Below are positions 1 to 63,245 of a stretch of 64,000 nt of DNA, in pieces (the first letter of the stretch is position 1; every line of letters begins with the position of its first letter). Source of the DNA: a virus. Under the pieces are notes generated by a model that was not told the DNA's origin, made no database searches, and saw only the letters and a program-made list of their open reading frames with translations. The DNA lies in the IMG/VR virus record IMGVR_UViG_3300017782_000002, positions 55,817 through 119,816 of that record. The stretch is one strand, 5' to 3'. A program made the translations under genes and the position numbers.

Positions 1-1275
1 ATGGACCCTACTTCTTTAAATTATAATCCTTGTGCTAATGTTGCATGTAGTAGCTGCTGTTGTTCAGTAGCAGGATGTATGGATGCAACAGCTGATAATT
101 ATAATGCTTCAGCTTGTTTAGATGATGGTTCTTGTGAATACACAGGATGTATGGATACTGCTGCTAGTAATTACAACTCTAGTGCAAACGTAGCATGTAG
201 TAGTTGTTGTACATACCCTGGTTGTACAAATGCAACAGCGTTAAACTATGATCCAAATGCTAATGTAGATGACGGATCATGTATATTACCTGTGTATGGT
301 TGTATGGATTCAACTGCTTTAAACTATAATGCAGCTGCAAACGTAGATGATGGTTCATGTACTTACTGTGTGTATGGATGTATGGATGCTACAGCGTCTA
401 ACTACAACTCTTTAGCTACATGTACTGACGGAAGCTGTACTTATCCAATTCAAGGATGTACTGACGCTAGTGCTTGTAATTATGATCCTCTTGCAACACA
501 AGATGACGGTTCTTGTTTAACAGTTCCTACAATGGATCTTGGTTCTACAAACTTTGGTATTAATACTCCTAACTTATTACAACAAGATGGTAGTGGTGTT
601 AGTGGTCTTGGTTGTGCAACTTACTATATGCAAGCTTATCCTTATGAAGTAGGTGAGCCATTCTATGGTGGACACGTTACAAAAAATATTTCTGGTAGTT
701 TTGTTTTAGGTGGTACAGGTAATCATGTAGGAAATGTATGGACAGAATCTTATTTCTTTGAATTAGGTACTGATGCTGCAAATGGTAATCCTCCATTAAC
801 TATAGGTAATCAATATTGTATAACATGGGCTGAGATTGTAATGGCTTTAAGATCTAGTGGTCAATGTTCTGATTGTTTAATGGGAGGTTGGGGTGTTAGA
901 ATAGATCAAGGTACAGGTACTCCTACTACAGCTGATCTTAATAGTGCAACTAATTTATATGATCCTGTAGCTCTTGGTACTTTAAGTACAGCTAATGCTT
1001 TAATTCATAACTCTGCATGTCAAACAAACGATGTTGGAAATGCTAATGGTGTTAACTCACCAGGTGCTCCAAATGGAAGTCACTCTAATTGGGTTGACAA
1101 ATGTATTACGTTTACAGCTACTGCATCACAACACAGAATACACATGTATGTAATTACTGATTATAACCAATGTACTTCTTGTACTTCACATTCTGGATCT
1201 AGTGTCCACGGATCATACATGGGTATATCAAAAGTACAGATAAGTACAAGCTGTAGTGGTAGTTGTAATTGCTAG
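1..1275 (+). CDS. Cys-rich repeat protein, probably 5'-truncated; virion decoration/fibre-like
   Basis: About 6-7 copies of GC[MT]DxxAxNYxxxAxxDDGSC in the N-terminal part, then a ~245-aa non-repeat domain. The ORF starts at base 1, so it likely continues upstream. Confidence 0.7.
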   Translation: MDPTSLNYNPCANVACSSCCCSVAGCMDATADNYNASACLDDGSCEYTGCMDTAASNYNSSANVACSSCCTYPGCTNATALNYDPNANVDDGSCILPVYGCMDSTALNYNAAANVDDGSCTYCVYGCMDATASNYNSLATCTDGSCTYPIQGCTDASACNYDPLATQDDGSCLTVPTMDLGSTNFGINTPNLLQQDGSGVSGLGCATYYMQAYPYEVGEPFYGGHVTKNISGSFVLGGTGNHVGNVWTESYFFELGTDAANGNPPLTIGNQYCITWAEIVMALRSSGQCSDCLMGGWGVRIDQGTGTPTTADLNSATNLYDPVALGTLSTANALIHNSACQTNDVGNANGVNSPGAPNGSHSNWVDKCITFTATASQHRIHMYVITDYNQCTSCTSHSGSSVHGSYMGISKVQISTSCSGSCNC

Positions 1276-48682: not shown

Positions 48683-50542
48683 CTATGTAATTTCACAGCT
48701 ACCACCAGCACAAGCTAACTCACCTTTTAAATCAGTATTATCATCAAGTTCTACAACCTTTGACAAGTCAACAGATGTAAGAGCTTTTAGTAATTCTTGA
48801 TACTTATCTTTTGAAATATCTTCAAATGGAGCTTGTGTATATGTACCACCGTTGTATGGTAATACAGCTAGACCATTATAACAATCTCTATTATCCCACA
48901 TCCATTTACCTGCTTTATCCCATTCATCTTCTTTCAAAGATACTGTTGCAGATACGTTGTGACTATTAGATCCTGTTCTGTGTCCATTACTTACCCAACC
49001 ATCTGAAATTAATTTGATACGTTTTAATAAATCAAATGCTGATTCAGTTCTTACTATAGAACCTTTTGGTGCTGCTTGTGGTATTGAAATAACAGCAGTA
49101 TCATGCGGTCTAAAGTATTCATCTTCTACTAATTCCGGGTGATTGTTTACCAAATATGTATAGATAGATTCATTTTTACCTACACGTAGTCTACGGATAT
49201 AAAAATCATTATGCCATGCATGAATACCAGAAGAAGTACCAAGAGTTAAAGATGTTGTACCAGCAGGTTTAACACATGTAGTTCTTGCTGCTTTATTTAC
49301 ACCAATCTTTTTTGCTATTCTTGCGTTCTCTCTTTTAACTAGAGATGCTGCTTCACCCATGTCTAATTTTAAAACTTTTCCACTAGCTATACCAGTCATA
49401 GATACACCAATAAGAGCATCCTTTTCTGTAGTTTCTTGCCAAATTTGTCTTAAGTAATGGAAATTAGTATAGCCAGCTTGCAATGTACCTATGAATGCTG
49501 CACCCTTTACTCTTTTGTTTAACTCTTCTTGTGTGCTAACATCTGAAACATTTACTTCACAAAGATTACAAAACTGATATGGACGTAAAGCAATTTCACA
49601 ACATGGGTTAGTACCCCAGTCTTTATCATTGTTAAAATAAATACCAGGCTCACCAGATCCAGAAAGTTCAATACGCTTCCATACATCTGTAAAAAAGTCT
49701 TTAGTAATTTTATGTCTCATTAATACAGCAGAGTTATTAGCTCTACCTCTTTGTGGATTTTTTTCCCACCAGTCACCTGACTTGCAAGAAATCATTTCAT
49801 CATCATGAGCACTAAAAAGACTAATAAGAGCAGCACGTCTAATACCTCCAGCTAATACTGCATCAGCAATATAACAAACTATATCATGAACTTCTAAAGT
49901 ACTTAATTGATCTCCATCTTCTTTATTACTTAGTATACCTTCTACTTTAAGTAAGCATTCTTTAAGTGGTTGAGGACCAGGAGCTTTACCACCAGATGTT
50001 ACGAGCCTAGCACCCTTTGGTCTAATATCTGAAAAATCAAATATGATCTTAGAAGATCTACCATTTAAATATGATTTCATTAATAATTTAACTGCGTCAG
50101 CCCAACCTTCTATAGAGTCACCAATTAAATATCTTTTAGTTCTTTTTGTATAAGGTTTGTTTATAGGAGGCAGTTGAGCAACATGATGATTTTGAACAGA
50201 ATAACCAACGCCTGTTCCACCTAACAACAAAAACATACACTCACTAAATGAATCAACATGATCTATAGGCATATAAGCACAATTGTATATTCTATTAGGA
50301 GCAATTTCAATTGGTTTACCACCAAATTGCATTGATCTCATTGATGGTAATATCTGTTTATCATAAACCATCTTATATACTTCTTCTATTTCATCTTTAA
50401 TGTGCGGGTATGACTTTAAGTGCATGTCCTTGTTTCTTGTAACTAATTCTTCCCATGTTTCTCTTCTGTTCAATTCTGGAAGATATTTAGCATATTTCAT
50501 ATGGACAGTAATATCACTTAGAATCTTGTTGTTTAATTCCAT
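48683..50542 (-). CDS. nrdJ: Class II (adenosylcobalamin-dependent) ribonucleotide reductase
   Basis: YNCAY, GGTGVG, TNPCCEI, FCNLCE, VKPAGT and C-terminal ACAGGSCEI. The true start is likely MELNNK at 50542, after an A-rich RBS, rather than 50653. Confidence 0.92.
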   Translation of the reverse strand: MELNNKILSDITVHMKYAKYLPELNRRETWEELVTRNKDMHLKSYPHIKDEIEEVYKMVYDKQILPSMRSMQFGGKPIEIAPNRIYNCAYMPIDHVDSFSECMFLLLGGTGVGYSVQNHHVAQLPPINKPYTKRTKRYLIGDSIEGWADAVKLLMKSYLNGRSSKIIFDFSDIRPKGARLVTSGGKAPGPQPLKECLLKVEGILSNKEDGDQLSTLEVHDIVCYIADAVLAGGIRRAALISLFSAHDDEMISCKSGDWWEKNPQRGRANNSAVLMRHKITKDFFTDVWKRIELSGSGEPGIYFNNDKDWGTNPCCEIALRPYQFCNLCEVNVSDVSTQEELNKRVKGAAFIGTLQAGYTNFHYLRQIWQETTEKDALIGVSMTGIASGKVLKLDMGEAASLVKRENARIAKKIGVNKAARTTCVKPAGTTSLTLGTSSGIHAWHNDFYIRRLRVGKNESIYTYLVNNHPELVEDEYFRPHDTAVISIPQAAPKGSIVRTESAFDLLKRIKLISDGWVSNGHRTGSNSHNVSATVSLKEDEWDKAGKWMWDNRDCYNGLAVLPYNGGTYTQAPFEDISKDKYQELLKALTSVDLSKVVELDDNTDLKGELACAGGSCEIT

Positions 50543-50615
50543 TCTTTTAATTTTTAGTAAGGTTAATAATTGTGTAGTAAAACAAGATACTAAATTATCT
50601 TGAATTTGGCACGTG

Positions 50616-50648
50616 CAAATATACAAAAGTGAAAACAAAAAATCCAAA
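50616..50648 (-). promoter_or_regulatory. Canonical Bacteroidota promoter TTTG-N21-TATATTTG driving nrdJ
   Basis: On the minus strand: TTTG (50648-50645), 21-nt spacer, TATATTTG (50623-50616), about 74 nt upstream of the nrdJ ATG. Confidence 0.7.
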
Positions 50649-50823
50649 TTCAAACATGTAAGCTTGTCTTTCTTTTTTTTCTTTTAAAAAGAACCCATTA
50701 AACAATGTGTTTTCTAAATTAACCACGCTATAACAAAAGCCAATATTAATATTATTCCTTGAAATAATATGCAATTCAAAATTATGTTTTTTCATATGAT
50801 ATTGTTTTTTGTTAATGTAATTT

Positions 50824-51174: not shown

Positions 51175-54100
51175 ATGTCTAGAAATTCAACCCATATAAA
51201 TTGTAATCAAGTTGCAGGAACAGTTAACCAAGGTATTTGGAAAAACGATTGTGATCCTTGTGCAACATCACCTTTTGCTATTAACAATATTACTGTTTGG
51301 CATAGGTTTAACTTTGGTGTAAATAATCACGCTACTCCTGCTGACATATTAGCTAACGTTGCTAATGCTGCTACTATATCACAATGGGATGATCAAATAG
51401 GCTCAAATGATGCTGAACAACAAACATTAGCTGATGCACCAACATGGTATTCTACAGATACTTCTCATAAAGTTACAGCAGGTAATCATTTTGATTTATC
51501 TTCTGCTATCACTTATGGTGCAGCTGCAGACTTTACAGTTTTACTTGCTTATGTGCCGTTAATAAATACAACTCCTTCAGGTCAAAAATTATGGGATCAA
51601 GCTGGTGGACAAAACTATCTTAAGTGGGATAGCCCTACTCAACTTACATTTAGATTAGCAGGACTTAATCATGTAGTAACAGGACCGGCTATACAATTAA
51701 CTGACTACACAAACTTTGTAGTTAGAAGATGTACAAACATGTGTCAAATATTTATAGCAGGTGTTCCATGGGGAGCTGCTTTCTTAGCAGCAGGTGCTTT
51801 AACAATAGAAAGATTAGGACCAGACGCTAATGGTTACATTGCTGCGCACATGCAATTTGACAGATGTTTAACTGATAAAGAAATATGGTGTCTTGATTGT
51901 TATAACAGTAATCAAAGTGATGAAGAAAATCCTGTAACATGTAATATAGGTGATTTTAAACTAGCTTGTAATGGTGATACAAACGGATCATTAACAGCAA
52001 CTATGTTTAATGCAACAGGAACTGTAACTTACTTATGGTCTCCTGGTGGACAAACAACACAAACAATAACTGGTCAAGGAGCAGGTACTTATACTTGTAC
52101 TCTTACTGACTCAGCATCTCCAGCAAATGTTTGTACAGCAAGCGGAGTTGTTACTGAACCAGTAGCTTTAGCATGTACAGTAACTGGAGTTAATCCTCAG
52201 TATATACTTAATAGTGCTGGCCAACAAATTTTAACAACAGGTAGTGTTTCAGCAGTAGCTACTGGAGGATATGGTGCAGGATGTACATTAACTTATGCAT
52301 GGACTAGAAACGGTAGTGCTATATCAAATGCAAATGGTGGAATGGCAGCTCCAGGTAATGTTGCATCATTTAATGTAACAGAAAATGGAGTTTATGCAGT
52401 AACTATAACAGATTGTTATGGTTGTACTACAACGTGTAATGTTACTATAACAATTCCTAACCCACCTAGTACTTTAGATATAGAATGTTGTTACGAAGCT
52501 GCAGGCTGTACAGATGAAGATATTAAATGGGCAATTATGTTAGACTCTACTGCAACTTTCCCTTGTACTATAACTGCATCTGGTTCTACATCAGGAACGG
52601 CTTCTTGGTCTCCTGTAACAATTTCTTCTTTACCTTCATCAACTTCAATAGACGGTTCTCAGTATGATATGTTCTCTTGTGAATCTAGCGGCCCTTGGGC
52701 TTATGGAAGTAATGCACAAAAGCTTTCTCCAGGTGAAACTTGGACGCTTACTGTAACTGACAGTTCTTCTCCAGCAAGGAGTCAAAGCTGTTCAGTTAAT
52801 ATAGTTAATCCTCCTGCTCTTACTTTAACATCATCAGTTACACAACCAACAATGTGTGAACATGGTGGATCTGTTTCTGACGGTGATATTACTTTTAATG
52901 GATCAGGTGGTAACCCAAATTGTAATCCGTGGACTTACTCAATAACTGGACCAAACAGTTTTTCAACTACTAATAACTATGTATTAAATGCAGCTCCAGG
53001 TACATACACTTTAACAGTGACAGATGCTTGTGGTTGTTCAGCAACACAAAATGTAACGCTGACTTGTCCAATAACAGCAGACATGACTGTAACTAATACA
53101 GATGTAAGCTGTAGACCAGTTCAAAGTGAATTAAACCCTAACCCACAAATACCTTGTGATGCAACGGCTACATTTACTGCAAACCCAACTTCAGTAACTG
53201 GATATACATTTGAAGCAATCCTTATGGATCCATCAGGTGTAGTTATATATAACTCAGGACAACTAGCAACTTTTAATGCTGCAACGGTTACTGGTTTATG
53301 TATTGGTAATTATACTTGGACTTATTTTGCTACTAACACAACTTCTGGTTTAACATATCAGGTAGACAGTGGATCGTTTACAGTTGCAGCTCCTCCCGCA
53401 TTAAGCGCAACAACAGTTGCTAACTTTATTCACTGCTTTGGAGGATCAACAGGAACAATTGATTTAACACCAAGCGGAGGAACACCTGGTTATACTTATT
53501 TATGGACAGCAGGAGCAACTGGAACAGTGCCTGCAGGTCAATCTACAAATCAAGACTTAACAGGTTTAGTATACGGAATATATTTCTGTACTATTACAGA
53601 TGCTAACGGATGTACTTTAACTATATCACAAAGTGTAAATGGATCAACTTGTCCTTTAACAATATATGGTATAGTACCAGAAATACCATGTCCTGGTCAA
53701 ACTACTAGTATTAAACAATTGTATATAACTTGTGGAACAGGTCCTTATACTTACGCATGGGTTGCTTCTAACGGTGGATCTTTAGGATCAAACTCATCAA
53801 CAGCAGATCAGTTAGTTGGCATAGGGGCAGGTACCTATACAGTTACTGTTACTGATGATAACGGTTGTACTGGAACTCAATCATGGACAGTAGTAGCACC
53901 TTCAGCAATATCTGGATCTATTACAGGAACAAACGTTGGCTGTAAAGGAGAAAGATCTGGAGCAGCACAATTTGACCAGTGGGCAGATCAACAATTTAGT
54001 GGAGCTAGTTACTTATGGACAACAGATGCAGGTTTTACAACACCTAACCCGTACGGACCATCTACCAACTCTTACATTAGTTCAGTACCAGCAGGAACAT

Positions 54101-55113
54101 ACTATTTACAAGTAACATTATCAAACGGATGTATTTGGACAGGTAGTATTGTAATAACAGAGCCTGGTACAGGAATGTCACTTAGTGCTGTTATAACAGA
54201 TGAGAATCAGTGTACTGATTGTTGTGGAGCAATAGACTTAACAGTTACAGGAGGGTCAGCACCTTACACTTTCCAATGGGATGATCCAGCTGCATCAACA
54301 ACCGAGGATTTATCGTGTGTTTCTGCAGGTGTGTATACAGTAATTGTTACAGATAATGCAGGATGTACTGCAACTGCTACATATACTGTAGGCGTAACCT
54401 ACTATCAGTTAACAATAGGTGTTGCATACGATAATACTACAGGTCAATTTACCACAACAGTTGGTGGAGGTAATCCTCCATACTACTACCAGTGGACTAA
54501 AAATGGAAATCCTTTCTCTTACGCACAAGATCCTTTTAGTGCAGGAAATGGTTACTACTGTGTAACTGTAACAGATTCAGTAGGATGTACTGGAACTACT
54601 TGTTACGATTTATCTAGAGAACCAAGAGGAGAAACAAGTTTTAACTGTCAAACTTACTCACCAACATTAGGTACAACATCATACGGATGTGTATCTGTAG
54701 CAGGAACAGGAGGTACTTACAGCACGCTTGCAGCTTGTCAAGCAGCATGTGAAGTTGAAAGACCTACTAGATATAGATGTCAAGAAGGAACTGGTTGTGT
54801 ATCACACCCTGGTGGAACATATACATCATTATCTGCATGTAATGCTGTCTGCGGTGCTTCTGGACAAAACGATATTAACTATGTTTGTGAAATCTTATGT
54901 AATGATAATGCATCAGGAGAAAGATATAAAACAACTGACGGAAGAGTTGATGTTGACGAAAGAGGTAATCCAGTTAGAGAAGACGCTGGAACTCCAGGTG
55001 GTAAATGTAGAGAAGAAAATTCTGAAACAGACTCTTCTTTAACTAAATACACAAGTTTTGAGCTTTGTAAAGCAGCTTGTCCTTGGTGTAAGGAAGGTAC
55101 TTATAAATACTAA
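51175..55113 (+). CDS. SprB-repeat adhesin-like/fibre protein with an N-terminal LamG-like domain
   Basis: Repeats of [ST]GG[TS]xPYT[YF]xW...GxYx(V/C)T(V/I)TDxxGC at ~51950-54600; C-terminal C-x-GC-GGxYxSLxAC repeats; no signal peptide or T9SS CTD visible. Confidence 0.75.
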   Translation: MSRNSTHINCNQVAGTVNQGIWKNDCDPCATSPFAINNITVWHRFNFGVNNHATPADILANVANAATISQWDDQIGSNDAEQQTLADAPTWYSTDTSHKVTAGNHFDLSSAITYGAAADFTVLLAYVPLINTTPSGQKLWDQAGGQNYLKWDSPTQLTFRLAGLNHVVTGPAIQLTDYTNFVVRRCTNMCQIFIAGVPWGAAFLAAGALTIERLGPDANGYIAAHMQFDRCLTDKEIWCLDCYNSNQSDEENPVTCNIGDFKLACNGDTNGSLTATMFNATGTVTYLWSPGGQTTQTITGQGAGTYTCTLTDSASPANVCTASGVVTEPVALACTVTGVNPQYILNSAGQQILTTGSVSAVATGGYGAGCTLTYAWTRNGSAISNANGGMAAPGNVASFNVTENGVYAVTITDCYGCTTTCNVTITIPNPPSTLDIECCYEAAGCTDEDIKWAIMLDSTATFPCTITASGSTSGTASWSPVTISSLPSSTSIDGSQYDMFSCESSGPWAYGSNAQKLSPGETWTLTVTDSSSPARSQSCSVNIVNPPALTLTSSVTQPTMCEHGGSVSDGDITFNGSGGNPNCNPWTYSITGPNSFSTTNNYVLNAAPGTYTLTVTDACGCSATQNVTLTCPITADMTVTNTDVSCRPVQSELNPNPQIPCDATATFTANPTSVTGYTFEAILMDPSGVVIYNSGQLATFNAATVTGLCIGNYTWTYFATNTTSGLTYQVDSGSFTVAAPPALSATTVANFIHCFGGSTGTIDLTPSGGTPGYTYLWTAGATGTVPAGQSTNQDLTGLVYGIYFCTITDANGCTLTISQSVNGSTCPLTIYGIVPEIPCPGQTTSIKQLYITCGTGPYTYAWVASNGGSLGSNSSTADQLVGIGAGTYTVTVTDDNGCTGTQSWTVVAPSAISGSITGTNVGCKGERSGAAQFDQWADQQFSGASYLWTTDAGFTTPNPYGPSTNSYISSVPAGTYYLQVTLSNGCIWTGSIVITEPGTGMSLSAVITDENQCTDCCGAIDLTVTGGSAPYTFQWDDPAASTTEDLSCVSAGVYTVIVTDNAGCTATATYTVGVTYYQLTIGVAYDNTTGQFTTTVGGGNPPYYYQWTKNGNPFSYAQDPFSAGNGYYCVTVTDSVGCTGTTCYDLSREPRGETSFNCQTYSPTLGTTSYGCVSVAGTGGTYSTLAACQAACEVERPTRYRCQEGTGCVSHPGGTYTSLSACNAVCGASGQNDINYVCEILCNDNASGERYKTTDGRVDVDERGNPVREDAGTPGGKCREENSETDSSLTKYTSFELCKAACPWCKEGTYKY

Positions 55114-55131
55114 TATTGAATATAGGAAACT

Positions 55132-55428
55132 ATGGAAAAAGATATTAACCAAGAATTCATGCTTATGAAGTTAAAGATTGAGACGTTAGAGGAGAAGATA
55201 GATCACGTCAATGCAAAGTTGGGCGTCATAACAGAACATTTGCTGAATCCAGATCAAGGGTTTGTATCTAGAGTAAATAGAAATACTCAATTTAGAGAAG
55301 ACATAGGGCCTCTAGTAAAAGACATGTATGAAATAAGAAGATGGAAAAGTCAGGTGTCTAGAGTTCTTTGGATTATTGCAACAGGTATTATACTTGGACT
55401 AGTGGGATTATTATTTATGTTAAAATAA
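55132..55428 (+). CDS. Holin-like membrane protein (coiled coil plus C-terminal TM helix)
   Basis: C-terminal VLWIIATGIILGLVGLLFML; lies near the endolysin gene. Confidence 0.5.
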   Translation: MEKDINQEFMLMKLKIETLEEKIDHVNAKLGVITEHLLNPDQGFVSRVNRNTQFREDIGPLVKDMYEIRRWKSQVSRVLWIIATGIILGLVGLLFMLK

Positions 55429-55433
55429 GTAGC

Positions 55434-55967
55434 ATGGCGTGTTTAAGATTCAAAGAAATACAAACATATGCAGGCAGACTTTCTAAAACTATCTTAACAG
55501 GAGGTACTTCAGAAAGAACTCTACAAATTTTTGACTGCCCAAACAACAGAATTGCAAGAATTGTAAGATCTCACAACTTAGGTTTAGATTTATGGTATAC
55601 TATAGAAAGTGCTGATGGAGCGCAAACTAATTTGCCTGCAAGAACTTGGCATAACGGTCAAGAGTATGTAACAAGTAGTAGCTTTCAAACATCCGGCTCA
55701 GCAATTGTTATGGGTACAGGAGTACCTGCTGCAGGAACTCCTAATGCAATTGGTAATTTTGATGATGCTTGGGCAGCAGATGCTGGTTATGGTTATTCAG
55801 GTAGGGGTCTAGACTTAAGTGGTACATGGTTAGAAGGAGGAGATAAGATATGGGTTCATGATACATTTGATCATGAAGGTGCTACAGGTGTACCAACACA
55901 TCACCCTGCAGGATACCTTATATGTTTAGAAATATTTGATGTAGTAAATAGTGGTTGTCCAATTTAA
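55434..55967 (+). CDS. Hypothetical protein
   Basis: Start MACLRF at 55434 is preferred because it avoids overlap with the upstream gene. Confidence 0.5.
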   Translation: MACLRFKEIQTYAGRLSKTILTGGTSERTLQIFDCPNNRIARIVRSHNLGLDLWYTIESADGAQTNLPARTWHNGQEYVTSSSFQTSGSAIVMGTGVPAAGTPNAIGNFDDAWAADAGYGYSGRGLDLSGTWLEGGDKIWVHDTFDHEGATGVPTHHPAGYLICLEIFDVVNSGCPI

Positions 55968-55976
55968 AAATAGATT

Positions 55977-56450
55977 ATGAAAAAGATTAGTGAACACATT
56001 AGTTACAAAGAAGCAATAACAAGTGCTACAGCTTTGAGAAGAGGTTTAGATAATACTCCTGGTCCTGAGCAATTAAAATGCATGCAAGAAATTGGTAGAG
56101 ATCTTTTTGAACCTCTTAGAGAGTGGGTTGAAGGTCCTATAAAAATAACTAGTATGTTTAGGGGAGAGCCTGTAAATACAGCTATAGGAGGTTCTAAAAA
56201 TTCACAGCATATGAAAGGTCAAGCTTTAGATTTGGATGATACATTTGGGTATAAAACAAATGCAGAGATGTATCACTATATAAAAGATAATTTAATATTT
56301 GATCAACTAATATGGGAGTTTGGAGATGATAATAATCCTAATTGGATACATGTAAGTTATGTAACTCATAGACCTAATAGAAAGAAGTGTACAGTTGCAC
56401 TAAAGAAAAACGGAAAGACAGTATATGAACATAGACCTATAGAGAAATAA
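55977..56450 (+). CDS. Peptidase M15-family endolysin
   Basis: ITSMFRGEPVNTAIGGSKNSQHMKGQALDL and WIHVS match the M15 Zn-binding SxH-x6-D and HxS motifs. Confidence 0.88.
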   Translation: MKKISEHISYKEAITSATALRRGLDNTPGPEQLKCMQEIGRDLFEPLREWVEGPIKITSMFRGEPVNTAIGGSKNSQHMKGQALDLDDTFGYKTNAEMYHYIKDNLIFDQLIWEFGDDNNPNWIHVSYVTHRPNRKKCTVALKKNGKTVYEHRPIEK

Positions 56451-56734
56451 TGGCAAAGGAATTAAACGAAGACACTAGCTTTAAAATAAGTCTTAAAACA
56501 CTAGCAGGAATAGCGGTTTTAATTTTTACTATAGTGGGTATGTGGTTTGCACTTCAAGCTGATATAGAAGAAGCAAAGCAATTACCAGAACCACCACCAG
56601 CTCCAGTATCAAGAATGGAATTTGATATGAAAGATAAAAACATAAGATTGTCAATTGAAAACACAGAAAAAGCTGTTGATGAAATGAAAGTTGACCTAAG
56701 AAGAATGGAAGATAAAATAGATAAATTAAGATAA
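56450..56734 (+). CDS. Single-TM coiled-coil protein (holin/spanin-like)
   Basis: TM segment LAGIAVLIFTIVGMWFAL, Pro-rich linker, then a coiled coil; TAATG-coupled to the endolysin. Confidence 0.5.
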   Translation: MAKELNEDTSFKISLKTLAGIAVLIFTIVGMWFALQADIEEAKQLPEPPPAPVSRMEFDMKDKNIRLSIENTEKAVDEMKVDLRRMEDKIDKLR

Positions 56735-56756: not shown

Positions 56757-56828
56757 ATGACTAAATGTGCATGCGGTAAAACAAAAGCTGAGGACGGTTC
56801 ATGTGACGGTTCACACAAAGAATGCTAG
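56757..56828 (+). CDS. 23-aa CDGSH-type iron-sulfur motif peptide (not in the ORF track)
   Basis: Translates to MTKCACGKTKAEDGSCDGSHKEC*; preceded by CTAAAAATT; fills the gap between neighbouring genes. Confidence 0.7.
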   Translation: MTKCACGKTKAEDGSCDGSHKEC

Positions 56829-56830
56829 AA

Positions 56831-56968
56831 ATGGCAAAAAAAAGAAAACTAAATAGTAAGAACCCTAAGTATATGGATCAGTCTCAGTTGAATGAGAAAC
56901 CCATAAAGAAAAAAGTATTGTATACTGAAATTAAAGGGGTTAAAGTTTATGGAATTTGGTATGAATAA
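56831..56968 (+). CDS. 45-aa basic hypothetical protein (not in the ORF track)
   Basis: MAKKRKLNSKNPKYMDQSQLNEKPIKKKVLYTEIKGVKVYGIWYE*; its stop overlaps the next start. Confidence 0.55.
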   Translation: MAKKRKLNSKNPKYMDQSQLNEKPIKKKVLYTEIKGVKVYGIWYE

Positions 56969-57320
56969 AATTAGTATAGCTTGGAAAATATTTATTGGAT
57001 ATATTCTGATATTAATATTTATGGTTGTTAGCTCAGAAGCTACAGGTCAAATTGTAGTTACACATTTTAATGCTGAGTGGAATGATCCAAACAAAGTTTC
57101 TTACATTGGTAAGCTAACAGATTGTGAGATAGTATATGTTGATATAGCTAAATCACCTAAACTACAAACTAAACATGAAATAGTAGTTGTACCTACTGTT
57201 ATTGTATTTAAAGACGGTGAAGAGATGAAAAGATTTCAAGCTGATATATCATTTAGTATGAAAGCAACTAGAAAAGATATGCAAGAAATAATTGATGAAT
57301 TAATAATGAGTGATTTTTAA
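56961..57320 (+). CDS. Exported thioredoxin-fold protein lacking CxxC
   Basis: Signal-like N-terminus ending SEATG-Q; HFNAEWN where thioredoxin has xFxAxWCxxC; cis-Pro-type VVPTVIVFKDGEE. Start 56961 preferred. Confidence 0.7.
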   Translation: MNKISIAWKIFIGYILILIFMVVSSEATGQIVVTHFNAEWNDPNKVSYIGKLTDCEIVYVDIAKSPKLQTKHEIVVVPTVIVFKDGEEMKRFQADISFSMKATRKDMQEIIDELIMSDF

Positions 57321-57667
57321 TGTATACTTATAAAGCAAAATTAGACAGAGTAGTAGATGGTGATACCATTGATGCTCACATAAACTTAGGTTTTGATATT
57401 ACTATTCATAAAAGAATAAGATTAGCTGGTATTGATACACCAGAATCTAGAACAAGAGATCTTGAAGAAAAAGCTAGAGGTTTAGCTTCTAAAGATAGGC
57501 TAGTAGAACTGCTAGGAGAAGGAAACTTTGTTTTAGAAAGCAAAGAAGTAGGAAAATACGGAAGAGTATTAGGTACACTACATGTAGAAGATGTTAACGT
57601 AAATCAAACCCTGGTAGAGGAAGGCTTTGCTGTAGAATATTGGGGAGGAAAAAAGAACAAAAAATAA
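57320..57667 (+). CDS. Staphylococcal nuclease (SNase)-like protein
   Basis: RVVDGDTI, IRLAGIDTPE, KYGRVLG and VNQTLVEEGFA. Confidence 0.88.
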   Translation: MYTYKAKLDRVVDGDTIDAHINLGFDITIHKRIRLAGIDTPESRTRDLEEKARGLASKDRLVELLGEGNFVLESKEVGKYGRVLGTLHVEDVNVNQTLVEEGFAVEYWGGKKNKK

Positions 57668-57668
57668 A

Positions 57669-60600
57669 ATGAGAAAACTATTATTTATATTATTAGCAAC
57701 TATAATATCTTGTGTAGCACCAAAAAAATGTTGCTCACAAAATTCTTGGGTAAACTATCAAGTACAATATGATTTTTATGCACCATCAGAATCTAATTTC
57801 TTTATGGTATCTAATGCTAATGGTGATACAGCAATGTTTCATCAACCTACTACTCCTTATGAAACATTAGACACTACAATATTTATAGATTCAGGTTCTT
57901 ACACAGTTACATTAACAGACAGTTACGGAGATGGTTGGATTTCACAACAACCTGCTTTCTTTAGAATGCGTAACTTGTGTCAAGGTATGATAATTAATTG
58001 GGACCCAGTGTTAGGTTCTTTTTTTCTTAGAGATACTACTGTAAACATATTACCTTGTGCCCCACCTGTTTATGGTTGTATGGATCCGCTAGCATTAAAT
58101 TTTGATTCAAATGCTACAATTGATGATGGCTCTTGTATATATCCTCCATGTAATGGTGTTATTAATGACACTGCATTTCAAATGTGTTGGGGTAGTCAAG
58201 CAGCCATTTCTTTTGCATGGGAAACAACTAGCAATAACAATTGTGATGTAGTTAAATTATATTACGGTAGTGAAAGCGGTTATAGTATTACTGTCCCTGG
58301 ACTTTGGCCATCAGGTGGCTGGAGAGATTGGGCTACTGCTGCTGGCCCTGGTCAAATGCCTCCTAACTGGACTGAAGAACATTATTTAGTATTAGAATTT
58401 GCTGACGGTTCTTTAGCAGATACAATGTTTTTTACACCGTATGCTTGTATACCTGGGTGTACAGATCCAACACAACCATCATATAATCCTTGGGCTACTA
58501 TAGACGATGGGTCTTGTTCAGGTACTATATGTGATACAGCAACAGAATATCAAATAACAATGGAGCTTACACTTGACAATTGGCCAGGTGAAACATCATG
58601 GTTAATGAATAGTGGTGGTGTAATAGACAGTGCTATTATAGGTACATATAACTTTAATGATATTGGTCAAACTTTTACATACAATTTTTGTATAGATCAA
58701 GGTGCTGGATTTGAATTAATACTTAATGATTCATACGGAGACGGTTTAGCCGGTTCTACTTCTGGAGGTTCTTTAGATGGTAATGTAGTTATATATGATT
58801 GTAATGGAGATACTATATGGATGCTACCTGATCCTGATTTTGGTTATACTGCTTATTCATCTCCTCTTAATGGCGTACCGTGTAATATAACACCTCCTGT
58901 CTATGGTTGTACAGATGATGATTATGTAGAGTATAATTCTTTAGCAACCGTTGATGACGGTTCATGTTCAACATTACATATTTATGGTTGTACTGACCCA
59001 GCTGCATTTAACTACGACCCTAATGCAACAATACTAGATTTAGTTCCTGATTGTAATTATAGATTAATCTTAGAAGATGACGCTGGAGATGGTTGGGGTA
59101 ATTCTTATTTAGGTATAACACAAGGCCCTATGAGTTGGACTTATACAATAGGTCCTGGTATATATAGTGATACCTTTAATATAATATTAGATTCTGATGT
59201 TCCTGTAAATGTATATTACTTTGAAATAGGAGGACCACAAACTCCACCTGAAGAAGTTCAATTCCAAACATGGCATAATTCTTTTAAATTAATAAATGTT
59301 TATGATGATGTACTATTAGAAGAAGGAACAAATCCTTTTGCTAACAACGGACAAGGAGCACTGCAAGCTTTTGATAGTCCTTTCTGGAACAAATATACAG
59401 CAGTACCAAATTGTGGTGATTACTGCATACCAACAATTTTAGGATGTTTAGACGCAACAGCATTTAATTATATACAACCTGTGGGTGATTCATTAATAGA
59501 TGTAAATACTAGTGATGGATCATGTATGCCTGTACTACTAGGATGCACAAACCCAATTGCATTTAACTATGACTCTTTAGCAAACACAGACGATGGATCA
59601 TGTGTAGCTGAAGTAATAGGATGTATGGATACTGCAGCATTTAATTTTAACCCAGCTGCAAACACAAATGATCCAGCATCATGTATTCCTGTAATATATG
59701 GTTGTATGGATGATACACAATTTAATTACAACCCAGCTGCTAATACAGATGACGGATCTTGTATACCTGTAATCTTTGGATGTACTGACGCATTAGCTTT
59801 TAATTATGACAGCTTGGCTAATACAAACAATAATTCATGTATTCCATTTATATATGGCTGCACCAATCCTGCAGCTCTAAACTATGATCCATTAGCAAAC
59901 ACTGATGATTCAACATGTATAGGGATCATATACGGTTGTACTGATATTACAATGCACAACTATAATCCTTTAGCTAATACTGACAACGGATCATGTATAC
60001 CGTTTATATATGGGTGTACAGATTCAACACAGTTTAATTATGACCCTACAGCAAACACTAACAACGGTACTTGTGTACCATTTATATACGGCTGTACTGA
60101 TCCAAGCGCATTAAATTATGACCCCTTTGCTAATACAGATGATTTTAGCTGTGTTTTACCTATCTATGGGTGTATGGACAGTACAGCCTTTAATTACGAT
60201 CCACTAGCTAATGTGGATAATGGATCTTGTCTGCCAATAATATATGGTTGTACAAATCCTATAGCTTTAAATTACTGTGATACTTGTAACACAGATGACT
60301 TTAGCTGCATACTTCCTATATATGGATGTACAGACAGCACTATGTATAACTATAATCCTCTAGCCAATGTTGACAATAATTCTTGTATACCTTTCATTTA
60401 TGGGTGCACTGACCCTACTATGCTTAACTACAACCCATCCGCTAATACGGAAGACTTTAGTTGTATCTCTTTCATTTACGGTTGTATGGATAGTACTGCT
60501 ATTAACTATGATCCGTTGGCTAATACTGAAAATGGTTCTTGTATTGAAGCAATTGTCGGATGCATGGATCCAAATGCGTGGAACTTTAACCCAGAAGCAA

Positions 60601-61022
60601 ATGTAATATTAGGACATGATTCATTAGGTTGTTTATATGCAGCTAACTGTACTGCAACAGAACCTGGAGAACCATACTTTTTAAATGATGGTTGTTATGC
60701 TTGGGTTATAGATGTAGATGATTATTGTTGTAACAATGAGTGGGATGACATATGTCAAGCTACATACAATTATTGTTCTGATGGTTGGACAGGACCACAA
60801 CCTCCTGCTAGAATTGCTGGAGAAGATATATTTTTATATCCAAATCCAACTAAAGGTCTGTTAAATATTAGTAAAGAAGCAGACATTGAAGTGTATAATC
60901 CTTTAGGTCAAATGATAATAAAGAGAGAAAATATCACTATATTAGATATGAGCACCTTAACTAAAGGTATTTACACCATTAAAATAAATAAATTAATAAC
61001 AAAACAAATAATTAAAAATTAG
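57669..61022 (+). CDS. Signal-peptide protein with ~19 GCxD Cys repeats and a C-terminal T9SS type A sorting domain
   Basis: N-terminus MRKLLFILLATIISC; repeats GC[TM]DxxAxN[YF]xPxANxDDGSC; C-terminus YPNPTKG...YNPLGQ...LDMSTLTKGIYTIKI...KQIIKN. Confidence 0.85.
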   Translation: MRKLLFILLATIISCVAPKKCCSQNSWVNYQVQYDFYAPSESNFFMVSNANGDTAMFHQPTTPYETLDTTIFIDSGSYTVTLTDSYGDGWISQQPAFFRMRNLCQGMIINWDPVLGSFFLRDTTVNILPCAPPVYGCMDPLALNFDSNATIDDGSCIYPPCNGVINDTAFQMCWGSQAAISFAWETTSNNNCDVVKLYYGSESGYSITVPGLWPSGGWRDWATAAGPGQMPPNWTEEHYLVLEFADGSLADTMFFTPYACIPGCTDPTQPSYNPWATIDDGSCSGTICDTATEYQITMELTLDNWPGETSWLMNSGGVIDSAIIGTYNFNDIGQTFTYNFCIDQGAGFELILNDSYGDGLAGSTSGGSLDGNVVIYDCNGDTIWMLPDPDFGYTAYSSPLNGVPCNITPPVYGCTDDDYVEYNSLATVDDGSCSTLHIYGCTDPAAFNYDPNATILDLVPDCNYRLILEDDAGDGWGNSYLGITQGPMSWTYTIGPGIYSDTFNIILDSDVPVNVYYFEIGGPQTPPEEVQFQTWHNSFKLINVYDDVLLEEGTNPFANNGQGALQAFDSPFWNKYTAVPNCGDYCIPTILGCLDATAFNYIQPVGDSLIDVNTSDGSCMPVLLGCTNPIAFNYDSLANTDDGSCVAEVIGCMDTAAFNFNPAANTNDPASCIPVIYGCMDDTQFNYNPAANTDDGSCIPVIFGCTDALAFNYDSLANTNNNSCIPFIYGCTNPAALNYDPLANTDDSTCIGIIYGCTDITMHNYNPLANTDNGSCIPFIYGCTDSTQFNYDPTANTNNGTCVPFIYGCTDPSALNYDPFANTDDFSCVLPIYGCMDSTAFNYDPLANVDNGSCLPIIYGCTNPIALNYCDTCNTDDFSCILPIYGCTDSTMYNYNPLANVDNNSCIPFIYGCTDPTMLNYNPSANTEDFSCISFIYGCMDSTAINYDPLANTENGSCIEAIVGCMDPNAWNFNPEANVILGHDSLGCLYAANCTATEPGEPYFLNDGCYAWVIDVDDYCCNNEWDDICQATYNYCSDGWTGPQPPARIAGEDIFLYPNPTKGLLNISKEADIEVYNPLGQMIIKRENITILDMSTLTKGIYTIKINKLITKQIIKN

Positions 61023-61027
61023 AAACT

Positions 61028-61732
61028 ATGGCAACCTTAAACGCAACGCTCACACTGGCTAGCTCAGATGTGACTACAGATCCATTAAGCTTTACTTTAA
61101 CAAAAGCTTTATCTGTGAAACCACCAAACATTGGTGTATCTAGAGCAGTAGCTCCAATTAATACACCTACAACACTTGTACCAGCTAGTGTTGATAATAA
61201 ATATGCATACGTAAAACACATGTCACTTAAATCTGACGGTACAACTGCTTCTACAAATACAGTAAATATTGCAACTATAGGAGACGGTGCACCTGTTAGA
61301 GAAGTTAGTACAATTACTTTAAATGCTGATTTAGTAGCAAGTAATTCAATAGTAGTAACAGTAGACGGTACAGCTTTATCTGCAATTAATTATGCAACTT
61401 CACATGCAGCTACATTTACCGCAATTGCAACAGCTATTCAAGCAACAGCAGGTGTGTTAACAGCAACAGCAAATGGTAGAGTAATAACCATAACAGGAGC
61501 TAATCCTGGAGATCCTTTTACAATTGCTATGACAATTACTGGAGGAGCTTCTCAACCTTCTTTAGGTGTAACAGAAACTACAGCAGCAAGCGGTGCAGCA
61601 TTTGCTCAATTATCACCAGGTGAATTTGTATTTATACCAGTAAAAGCAGGAGAAGGTTTATCTGCATTAGCTTCAGGTACAGTATCAGCTGATGGTGTAT
61701 TATTAGAATACGCTTACTTTACTAAACAGTAA
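61028..61732 (+). CDS. Putative structural protein (Ala/Thr-rich)
   Basis: Beta-rich; central TATANGRVITITG segment typical of virion proteins. Confidence 0.45.
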   Translation: MATLNATLTLASSDVTTDPLSFTLTKALSVKPPNIGVSRAVAPINTPTTLVPASVDNKYAYVKHMSLKSDGTTASTNTVNIATIGDGAPVREVSTITLNADLVASNSIVVTVDGTALSAINYATSHAATFTAIATAIQATAGVLTATANGRVITITGANPGDPFTIAMTITGGASQPSLGVTETTAASGAAFAQLSPGEFVFIPVKAGEGLSALASGTVSADGVLLEYAYFTKQ

Positions 61733-61736
61733 TAAA

Positions 61737-62777
61737 ATGATTAGACAACTGATATTAATACTACTTTGTTTACCTCTATTTAGTTTTGGCCAATTAGATT
61801 TAAAGAAAACTTTTAAATTTTCTACATTCTATGGTGCAATAAATGGAGGTACATCTATATCAGACGTTGATATATATTCTGTTACAAACGGTCTTGAAAC
61901 TCAAACTATTGAAACCCCGTATGATTATTCAGTATCATTAGGGATACGAAAGATTGCAAGATTTGGATATGAGAACAGAGCTAATACATTTTACGATGGT
62001 ACAGAGACATCATTTTCAGATGCAGCAACGATAGGAAAAGTAAAAGGTTTAGAGTTTTTATTTGAAGCTGACTACCGAAGAGTACAGGGTGTAGAGTACT
62101 TAGATCAACAACACTTTATTAGGTATGTTGAAAACAAATGGCTTACTAAAATAGAATATCTAAGAGATGGTTTTGCAGACATTGAGTATTTTGAAATGTC
62201 TGAAAGATATAAATATGAAGTAAATAATAAGTTATCTTTAAACATAGGGTTAGCACATAGAATTGCTGAGCCATATGGATTTGATCCTCTAGAAGAATGG
62301 AAGCTGAGTAATGGGAATTTGCATTACACATATTTAGCTTTACAAGAAGGATATAATGTTGATGTATTTAACAGTGAATATTATGACCCAGCTGGGAATG
62401 TTGTTGCGACAAGCTCAGAAGTATGGGAAGCCGTAGTTATTCCTGAAGTACTTCAAGATTATACAACTAGAAAAAGAAATAAGCTTCCTTCACAATGGAA
62501 CCATTCTTTAGTTGTAGGATTTGATTATTACTATTACACTAAAACTTTTTGGACACATGCTTGGGCTAACGTTATGCCTTGGCACTATAATGATGGAGGT
62601 GAATACTCTTATTTTAATTTTAATGATGGAAAACAATGGTATGATTATTCTGGTGGATTAATATTTGGAACTAAGATAACTAAACATTTAGGAACATTTG
62701 TTGAAGGTACATATAACAAATATTGGAACAGAACCTGGTATGATTTTAAGCTAGGCATTAACTATATAATATTTTAA
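61737..62777 (+). CDS. Putative outer-membrane beta-barrel protein
   Basis: Signal peptide MIRQLILILLCLPLFSFG-Q; many aromatic amphipathic strands; C-terminal YDFKLGINYIIF ending in Phe (BAM-type signal). Confidence 0.7.
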   Translation: MIRQLILILLCLPLFSFGQLDLKKTFKFSTFYGAINGGTSISDVDIYSVTNGLETQTIETPYDYSVSLGIRKIARFGYENRANTFYDGTETSFSDAATIGKVKGLEFLFEADYRRVQGVEYLDQQHFIRYVENKWLTKIEYLRDGFADIEYFEMSERYKYEVNNKLSLNIGLAHRIAEPYGFDPLEEWKLSNGNLHYTYLALQEGYNVDVFNSEYYDPAGNVVATSSEVWEAVVIPEVLQDYTTRKRNKLPSQWNHSLVVGFDYYYYTKTFWTHAWANVMPWHYNDGGEYSYFNFNDGKQWYDYSGGLIFGTKITKHLGTFVEGTYNKYWNRTWYDFKLGINYIIF

Positions 62778-62943: not shown

Positions 62944-63030
62944 ATGAAAAAAATATTTTGTAAAGTAATAAAAACAATAACTTTTGGTAAAGTTTGTTTA
63001 GGATGGTGCTCAATAAAATGTAGCAAGTAA
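62944..63030 (+). CDS. 28-aa basic Cys-rich peptide (not in the ORF track)
   Basis: MKKIFCKVIKTITFGKVCLGWCSIKCSK*; TAATG overlap with the next gene. Confidence 0.45.
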   Translation: MKKIFCKVIKTITFGKVCLGWCSIKCSK

Positions 63031-63245
63031 TGAATATATTTAAAGATAATAATGATTGGAATGAAAAAAGTATTATAGGAGCTATTGCTTTTGTAATAAT
63101 GGTTCTTGTTATGATATTAGATTTATTAACAGGTTGGTTAGGGAGAGATCTAGCTATTAATGAATTTGTATATGACTCATTTGTTTGGGTTGTTTTAGGA
63201 TGTTTTGGGATAGCTGGTATAGAAAAATTTGCTAATAAGAAATAA
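63030..63245 (+). CDS. Two-TM holin-like membrane protein
   Basis: Two hydrophobic helices and a basic C-terminus (GIEKFANKK). Confidence 0.55.
   Translation: MNIFKDNNDWNEKSIIGAIAFVIMVLVMILDLLTGWLGRDLAINEFVYDSFVWVVLGCFGIAGIEKFANKK

Follow-up and report, generated by a model that had tools for sequence, protein, structure and literature searches.

A 64,000-nucleotide stretch of viral DNA (hereafter the window; positions 55,817 to 119,816 of IMG/VR record IMGVR_UViG_3300017782_000002) carries, toward its 3′ end, four plus-strand genes whose products bear export or membrane signals and which lie next to lysis genes. These genes encode, in window coordinates unless stated otherwise, a coiled-coil-like inner-membrane protein of 94 amino acids (aa; 56450-56734), an exported 123-aa protein with a thioredoxin (Trx) fold (56949-57320), an 1117-aa type IX secretion system (T9SS) cargo of type A (57669-61022), and a 346-aa outer-membrane β-barrel (61737-62777). 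The barrel, the 94-aa protein, and Trx are referred to below as the trio. The reading that we favor, with slightly less than even confidence, is that two linked units, an adhesin-like cargo and a trans-envelope lysis trio that acts at the outer-membrane step, share a compact late block with the endolysin gene. The gene neighborhood, the conservation, and the architecture fit a trans-envelope lysis assembly better than a model in which the barrel anchors the cargo. Complex formation by the trio, its timing, and its activity we infer, as follows. The 94-aa protein, Trx, and the barrel would together build a structure across the envelope as part of the lysis gene set. This assembly would act at the last lysis step and breach or destabilize the outer membrane after the holin and the endolysin. 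In this role, the trio would substitute for spanins, which these phages seem to lack, and the cargo would be an accessory gene of its own, in most cases housed in the operon of the trio. A bolder version, possible but on balance doubtful, is that Bacteroidota phages disrupt the outer membrane with a new system of three parts, namely the trio, in which a barrel inserted by the β-barrel assembly machinery (BAM) replaces the outer-membrane spanin (o-spanin) and Trx bridges to the inner-membrane partner. This system would be present in thousands of marine phages and, along with holin and endolysin, would pass from one phage backbone to another.

The barrel, the 94-aa protein, Trx, and the cargo occur together in approximately 150 related viral contigs, and almost all loci of the clade with full coverage have the four genes. 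Two sets of loci were retrieved independently, 72 with the barrel and 80 with a Trx profile. Among the barrel-anchored loci, 60 of 72 have both the 94-aa and the Trx genes. Of the 59 loci with both open reading frames (ORFs) called, 55 have the 94-aa gene directly upstream of the Trx gene, and the barrel gene is directly upstream of the 94-aa gene in 44 of 60. In the Trx-anchored loci, the 94-aa gene is found within 4 kb in every case (80/80), the barrel in 71/80, and the cargo in 64/80; the misses are mostly truncated contigs. The usual order is cargo, barrel, 94-aa gene, Trx, and a gene for a 71-aa protein (g71, see below), and where the order is permuted, the cargo–barrel and 94-aa–Trx pairs shift as blocks. 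The stop codon of the cargo gene and the start of the barrel gene overlap or abut in 41 of 57 loci, with 20 overlapping.

The trio and the cargo have diverged to different extents. The trio is conserved like core genes (median identity ≈63%), and its mean pairwise distances are 0.33 to 0.41 vs 0.64 to 0.68 for the N-terminal and C-terminal domain (CTD) parts of the cargo, which are thus about twice as divergent. Mantel tests of co-divergence among the trio members and the cargo gave r values of 0.13 to 0.45 throughout and singled out no pair. The original prediction, made from the sequence of the window, was of a three-gene surface-display module consisting of cargo, barrel, and Trx. The co-occurrence and synteny that it expected of the three genes are borne out by the loci described above, but the three-gene unit itself does not stand: we read the module as a conserved trio, including the overlooked 94-aa protein, plus a separate and variable cargo, and in distant phages the trio occurs without a CTD protein.

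The barrel belongs to an orphan, virus-only family. Here and for the other proteins, leaders were judged by hydrophobicity, by a lipobox or the Q-rule, and by conservation, where the Q-rule denotes the exposed Gln that follows the leader in Bacteroidota (PMC5837995). The barrel leader MIRQLILILLCLPLFSFG is followed by Q (...FSFG before Q) and obeys the Q-rule, and the C terminus reads ...GINYIIF. Of 68 homologs, 49 terminate in F, 15 in L, and two in Y. An AlphaFold2 model, built on a 41-sequence alignment reaching down to 26% identity, is an approximately 14-stranded hairpin array (predicted local distance difference test score [pLDDT], 79.6; predicted template modeling score [pTM], 0.74). 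In structural comparisons with VIA-align, CymA scored highest (Z 11.4; root mean square deviation 5.6, 211 aligned), followed by OmpG (11.0) and TamA (10.7), with PorV at only 8.0. Foldseek returned NanC and FapF, and every top fold match is an outer-membrane barrel. In the protein atlas the barrel falls in virus-only clusters, for which the nearest named clusters are autotransporter, OmpG, and CymA. Its 3737 homologs, many from Tara ocean samples, are all unnamed. No family was matched in Pfam, NCBIfam, or PHROG, a search of PDB sequences with the barrel profile gave no match, and neither did a scan of GTDB genomes with the barrel pattern. Together, the leader, the model, and the terminal residue suggest that the barrel would be inserted in the outer membrane by BAM. 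The most conserved stretch, residues 69 to 106 (61941-62054; GxRKIARFxYENR...DGTE), overlaps the sole low-confidence part of the model (residues 77-98), a pattern typical of a partner-binding loop.

The 94-aa protein consists of a short conserved cytoplasmic N terminus, one transmembrane (TM) segment (approximately residues 13-37), a Pro-rich PEPPPAP linker, and a charged C-terminal part with hydrophobic residues at 3-4 spacing (residues 65-93). It has no Cys, no family match in Pfam or NCBIfam, and a weak match to phrog_1009; its profile gave weak matches alone against the PDB (E ≥ 0.06). This layout suggests that the linker and the coiled-coil-like part reach into the periplasm.

Trx carries a signal peptide that in every homolog ends in G, S, or A before Q, as expected from the Q-rule. 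The family profile matches PDB thioredoxins with an E value of 2.6e-10 (2vim), while the protein itself scores 22.3 bits against PF00085, under the cut-off of 23.5. There is no CxxC motif: WNDPN replaces WCGPC at the active site, with N45 and N48 invariant in 22 sequences, and the cis-Pro-Thr loop is kept (P82-T83 invariant). Trx is hence probably a soluble periplasmic protein that has retained a peptide-binding cis-Pro loop. The C terminus of the family is a conserved aromatic residue (...SDF, ...NKF, ...DKY; 57309-57317 in the window), which could be part of a docking strand or motif.

The cargo is composed of a leader, four β-sandwich domains, repeats, a Cys-rich linker, and a CTD. Residues 1056 to 1117 (60834-61019) match the T9SS type A sorting domain models TIGR04183 (34.3 bits; cut-off 23) and PF18962 (39 bits; cut-off 27), and this is the only CTD match of this type in the whole 119,816-bp genome. 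TIGR04183 also matches the C termini of 23 of 29 cargo homologs. The N terminus, MRKLLFILLATIISC, is a hydrophobic leader with a lipobox (IIS followed by C) of the lipoprotein type, and the relatives have Q-rule leaders of the signal peptidase I (SPI) type. Moreover, the same form of leader, a lipobox followed by C(A/V)APKKCC(S/G/A)Q, that sits on the cargo in the window genome (57669-57740) is found on the barrel in 15 related loci (L002, L020, L033, and 12 others), so leaders seem to have been swapped by recombination. The AlphaFold2 model (pLDDT 66.6) shows four β-sandwich domains at approximately residues 25 to 552, poorly structured two-Cys repeats, and a CTD sandwich. Foldseek with the whole model returned only generic Ig, FnIII, MAM, and adhesin-type multi-β-sandwich arrays with low TM-scores and no enzyme fold, and scans of the N-terminal segments against Pfam, NCBIfam, and PHROG gave no family. 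The repeat is a 26-aa two-Cys unit (GCTD..NY..DDGSC), present in approximately 19 copies by Cys spacing. The structural block encodes a 1609-aa protein, without a signal, that contains this repeat as well (34.5% identity over 446 aa). The more than 4400 homologs of the cargo are mostly annotated with PF18962 alone, and some also with MAM. On sequence grounds, the cargo is a variable, adhesin-like protein that would be exported by the infected Bacteroidota cell via Sec and then the host T9SS to the surface or the medium. Secretion by this route would depend on the SprA, PorV, and GldK proteins of the host, and PorU would cleave off the CTD.

These data uphold several parts of the original prediction: export signals on three genes (the lipobox leader of the cargo and the Q-rule leaders of the barrel and Trx), an 1117-aa protein with a type A CTD, a Cys-less thioredoxin fold, and a barrel that ends in a BAM-type Phe. 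The use of host Sec, BAM, and T9SS by the phage is the natural reading of these sequences.

What points to lysis is the company that the trio keeps. In the window, the stop of the gene for an M15-type endolysin (55977-56450, plus strand; PF08291, 52 bits; phrog_894 endolysin, 8.9e-25) overlaps the start of the 94-aa gene. The trio persists, at 30 to 36% barrel identity, in other phage backbones. One such locus (L160), from another phage type with a tape-measure-like gene upstream, reads barrel, 93-aa TM protein, Trx, 44-aa gene, M15 endolysin, and holin, and its holin is 69% identical to that of the window phage. Another (L161) has a g71-like gene followed by barrel, 92-aa TM protein, Trx, and M15 endolysin. 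In L114, a two-TM protein, an endolysin of another type, a TM protein, Trx, the barrel (35% identity), and a holin are contiguous, and in L106 the order is TM protein, one gene, Trx, and holin. A hidden Markov model of the clade CTD detected no CTD protein on the examined stretches of these four loci and found its positive controls. Within the crAss-like clade, at least 25 of 43 loci with full flanks have a recognizable endolysin or holin within 6 kb, a minimum given that endolysins of other types escape recognition.

In this context, it is of interest how these phages deal with the outer membrane. Bacteroides and Croceibacter phages are among 91 phages reported to be spanin-less (Kongari et al. 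2018, PMC6139136). On the plus strand between 55,000 and 63,300, a search for a small lipobox ORF of the o-spanin type found none except internal cargo frames, with a pattern that also missed the lipobox of the cargo and is not exhaustive. The gene adjoining the 94-aa gene encodes the SPI-type Trx, not an o-spanin lipoprotein. Like two-component spanins such as lambda Rz/Rz1 and T4 PseT.3/PseT.2 (PMC6139136), the trio occupies this position in the lysis cassette and combines a type II inner-membrane protein, with a predicted periplasmic coiled-coil-like part, and an outer-membrane partner, and so could span the envelope. It differs in having, in place of a lipoprotein of 40 to 130 aa, a BAM-type barrel of 346 aa as the outer-membrane partner, in the presence of a third, soluble Trx-fold member, and in the absence of periplasmic cysteines and of sequence similarity to any spanin family. 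The trio is thus a concrete candidate for the means by which Bacteroidota phages, some of them surveyed as spanin-less, would breach the outer membrane.

Several points weigh against a lysis role. The gene neighborhood is the sole functional evidence for it, and accessory genes such as lambda bor also adjoin lysis genes. In most loci of the crAss-like clade, the endolysin gene is a few kb from the trio and does not adjoin it. The periplasmic part of the 94-aa protein, approximately 58 residues, is short for spanning the periplasm, and the trio proteins lack the periplasmic cysteines used by most spanins. To our knowledge, there is no precedent for a β-barrel as a partner in membrane fusion or disruption. 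Searches with tblastn of the barrel, Trx, and the 94-aa protein against 50,697 isolated phage records returned nothing relevant, i.e., no cultured phage with the trio. Finally, a lysis role leaves the tight coupling of cargo and barrel, with its 20 overlapping junctions, as a coincidence of operon packing.

This coupling is more readily accommodated if the barrel is a dedicated carrier or anchor of the T9SS cargo, Trx chaperones the Cys-rich repeats, and the cell becomes coated with a phage adhesin, as the original prediction had it, an explanation that we consider unlikely. The purposes proposed there for such a display are conjectural and would be exclusion, masking, or avoidance of grazing. 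The joint presence of the four genes in nearly all fully covered clade loci fits such a module, as does PorV among the fold matches of the barrel. Moreover, T9SS proteins with a type B CTD have known carrier barrels encoded alongside, and in the SprF/PorP systems (PMC9143113, PMC12635249), as here, the gene for a large adhesin-like cargo is immediately followed by one for an outer-membrane barrel. A further resemblance is a Cys pair in a periplasmic tail of some phage barrels, reminiscent of the CxC tails through which SprF and PorG are disulfide-bonded to GldK (PMC12635249). This pair is N-terminal and vicinal (CC), however, and is present in 15 of 68 barrels only, whereas the SprF/PorP-type motif is a CxC in the C-tail; the barrel of the window lacks the CC pair and ends at its β-signal without a C-tail or a periplasmic CxC motif.

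Other data argue against an anchor. SprF/PorP serve type B cargo, whereas the CTD of the phage cargo and most of its relatives is type A, and known type A cargo uses PorV and attachment to lipopolysaccharide, not a private barrel. The PorP/SprF models PF11751 and TIGR03519 match nothing in the genome at E ≤ 10, and PF11751 matches none of 41 barrel family members at E ≤ 5. The barrel is also found without a cargo, in the distant phages in which the trio has no CTD protein nearby. In addition, divergence of the cargo CTD is double that of the barrel, the Mantel tests reveal no particular barrel–cargo link, and in the window a gene for a 234-aa protein separates the two. Since Trx has no cysteines, it is unable to perform redox work on the Cys-rich repeats. 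Collectively, the type A CTD, the lack of PorP/SprF matches, and the occurrence of the trio without the cargo weaken the proposal that the barrel anchors the cargo.

Another possibility is that the trio, alone or jointly with the cargo, shields the infected cell or the progeny through superinfection exclusion or receptor masking, blocking an envelope route or a receptor on which related phages rely, in analogy to T4 Imm/Sp or T5 Llp. All parts would be located in the envelope, the small periplasmic and small membrane proteins resemble the layout of T4 Sp/Imm, and the cargo is hypervariable like genes engaged in an arms race. In contrast, the trio is conserved like core genes and common to different backbones, which exclusion genes seldom are; its genes are tightly grouped with those for late functions and lysis, and nothing indicates an early promoter; and searches of Pfam, NCBIfam, PHROG, and PDB gave no similarity to any known exclusion protein. 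Such a role is quite improbable in our view. Lambda Lom, Bor, and T5 Llp are phage-encoded host outer-membrane proteins, often encoded near late or lysis genes, but these are small eight-stranded barrels or lipoproteins that act alone in virulence or receptor blocking. The phage barrel discussed here, unlike these, has approximately 14 strands and no known family, and it is tied to two partners that face the periplasm, in marine phages of lytic type. That the proteins are virion parts (fibers or decoration), with leaders and CTD as relics of host-captured genes, is very improbable: the cargo repeats do recur in the 1609-aa protein and the block sits among giant structural genes and a tail-fiber gene, but the cargo, the barrel, and Trx keep cleavable leaders of the Q-rule or lipoprotein type over approximately 150 loci, and a membrane barrel with a BAM-type C terminus cannot fold in the cytoplasm, where virions are assembled.

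Whatever the trio does, the cargo extends what has been described for phages and T9SS. The sole earlier report of a phage-borne T9SS cargo concerns "Cryophage", which encodes a hypervariable type A cargo for which a role in exclusion was proposed (Bellas et al. 2020, PMC7468147). The Cryophage and window cargos both carry a TIGR04183-type sorting domain, differ strongly from one related phage to the next, and would presumably leave the cell via the T9SS of a Bacteroidota host. The Cryophage cargos are enzymes or a PA14 protein in flexible islands, whereas the window cargo is an adhesin-like repeat protein encoded at a constant position beside the trio and the lysis genes; its lineage is marine and crAss-like and has thousands of metagenomic relatives. 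These findings suggest that hijacking of the host T9SS by phages is not a Cryophage one-off but a standing feature of a large marine crAss-like group, and the cargo bears on how infected Flavobacteriia interact with particles, other cells, and other phages.

The assignment to this group follows from the genome. The record comprises 119,816 bp and is rated complete, and the window is its final 64 kb. Its large terminase shares approximately 25% identity with the terminases of crAss-like phages and with those of the Flavobacterium phages FpV21/Fpv20, and the window has giant ORFs of up to 4887 aa, typical of the crAss-like group. The phage belongs to a marine crAss-like lineage. Long module-bearing contigs of metagenome-assembled genomes (MAGs; among L243-L247) are binned as Flavobacteriales and Sphingobacteriales. 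Other such contigs in this group are binned as Parvibaculum, Maricaulis, and Nitrosopelagicus, and these contigs are short and likely mis-binned. Since the terminase kinship, the Q-rule leaders, and the MAG bins agree, the host is probably a member of the Bacteroidota. The tail-fiber gene leaves the contig end (63518-64000) and appears to resume at the contig start (genome 8-2350), and the record, although labeled linear, is therefore probably a circular or circularly permuted assembly; no terminal repeat of 20 to 400 nt was found in it.

The module is located at the end of a long plus-strand late block, downstream of a 1312-aa SprB-repeat/Hoc-like protein and the M15 endolysin and upstream of the tail-fiber gene. 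Giant structural genes and the tail-fiber gene surround the block. The motif TTTGTATATTAT, allowing up to one mismatch, occurs on the plus strand only at intergenic sites just upstream of genes (1303, 4275, 17907, and 50824) and may be a late promoter, although its total count is not above chance (six observed vs 3.2 expected). As it is absent from 50.8 kb to the window end, the 1312-aa protein, the endolysin, the trio, and the cargo may share one transcription unit. Scans for sigma-70 promoters and terminators gave results below or near chance.

Three further genes lie between or next to those of the module. The original prediction noted a CDGSH peptide and a staphylococcal-nuclease-type endonuclease (SNase) interleaved with the export genes; both are real, but they are mobile passengers and not parts of the module, and the same holds for the 234-aa protein (g234). 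The CDGSH-motif mini-ORF of 23 aa, MTKCACGKTKAEDGSCDGSHKEC (56757-56828, plus strand), is also kept in 11 related loci, where it is placed elsewhere, e.g., directly after the holin gene. It has CxCxxT...CDGSH with one extra residue and no Pro, compared with CxCx2(S/T)x3PxCDG(S/A/T)H in the approximately 39-aa CDGSH fold, and may be a free-standing metal-binding peptide. A 48-aa ORF at 56822-56968 was rejected as a gene, as it overlaps the conserved mini-ORF and the Trx start and has no relatives. The SNase (57320-57667, plus strand; PF00565, 51 bits; phrog_452, 2.9e-38) has no leader and is present in 22 of the 72 barrel-anchored loci, at varying positions. The g234 gene (61028-61732, plus strand), also without a leader, is placed between cargo and barrel in this lineage only; no match was found in Pfam, NCBIfam, or PHROG, and one of the 72 loci has a partial homolog.

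Among the neighboring genes, g71 encodes a 71-aa protein with two TM segments (63030-63245, plus strand) and lies 3′ of the Trx gene in relatives, often directly before the holin gene, with the Trx–g71 adjacency in 24 of 31 loci. It is likely a lysis-cassette membrane protein because of this position. The holin gene itself (genome 3825-4217; phrog_3427, 1.2e-31; PF11351, above cut-off) is just past the fiber gene, beyond the window end. Holin-anchored loci were discarded as a lineage test, since the holin family is common to unrelated small phages. Two genes before the endolysin, a 98-aa protein (55132-55428, plus strand) has an N-terminal coiled-coil-like part and a C-terminal TM segment, and is possibly another lysis accessory. 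It also has a weak XhlA-like "hemolysin" PHROG match (E 0.008).

Two large proteins of the structural block, both signal-less, contain repeats of a surface type. The 1609-aa protein (genome 52262-57091, its end at window 1-1275) has two-Cys GCTD repeats as in the cargo, and the 1312-aa protein (51175-55113) has SprB repeats and Hoc-like PHROG matches. The latter was rejected as a T9SS cargo, as it lacks a leader and its TIGR04183 match contains no scoring stretch. Given these repeats, the virion and the infected cell may display related surface modules. Inside the plus-strand late block, a class II-type ribonucleotide reductase gene (phrog_367, 1.7e-134) is encoded on the minus strand (48683-50653) and is kept at 67 to 95% identity in relatives.

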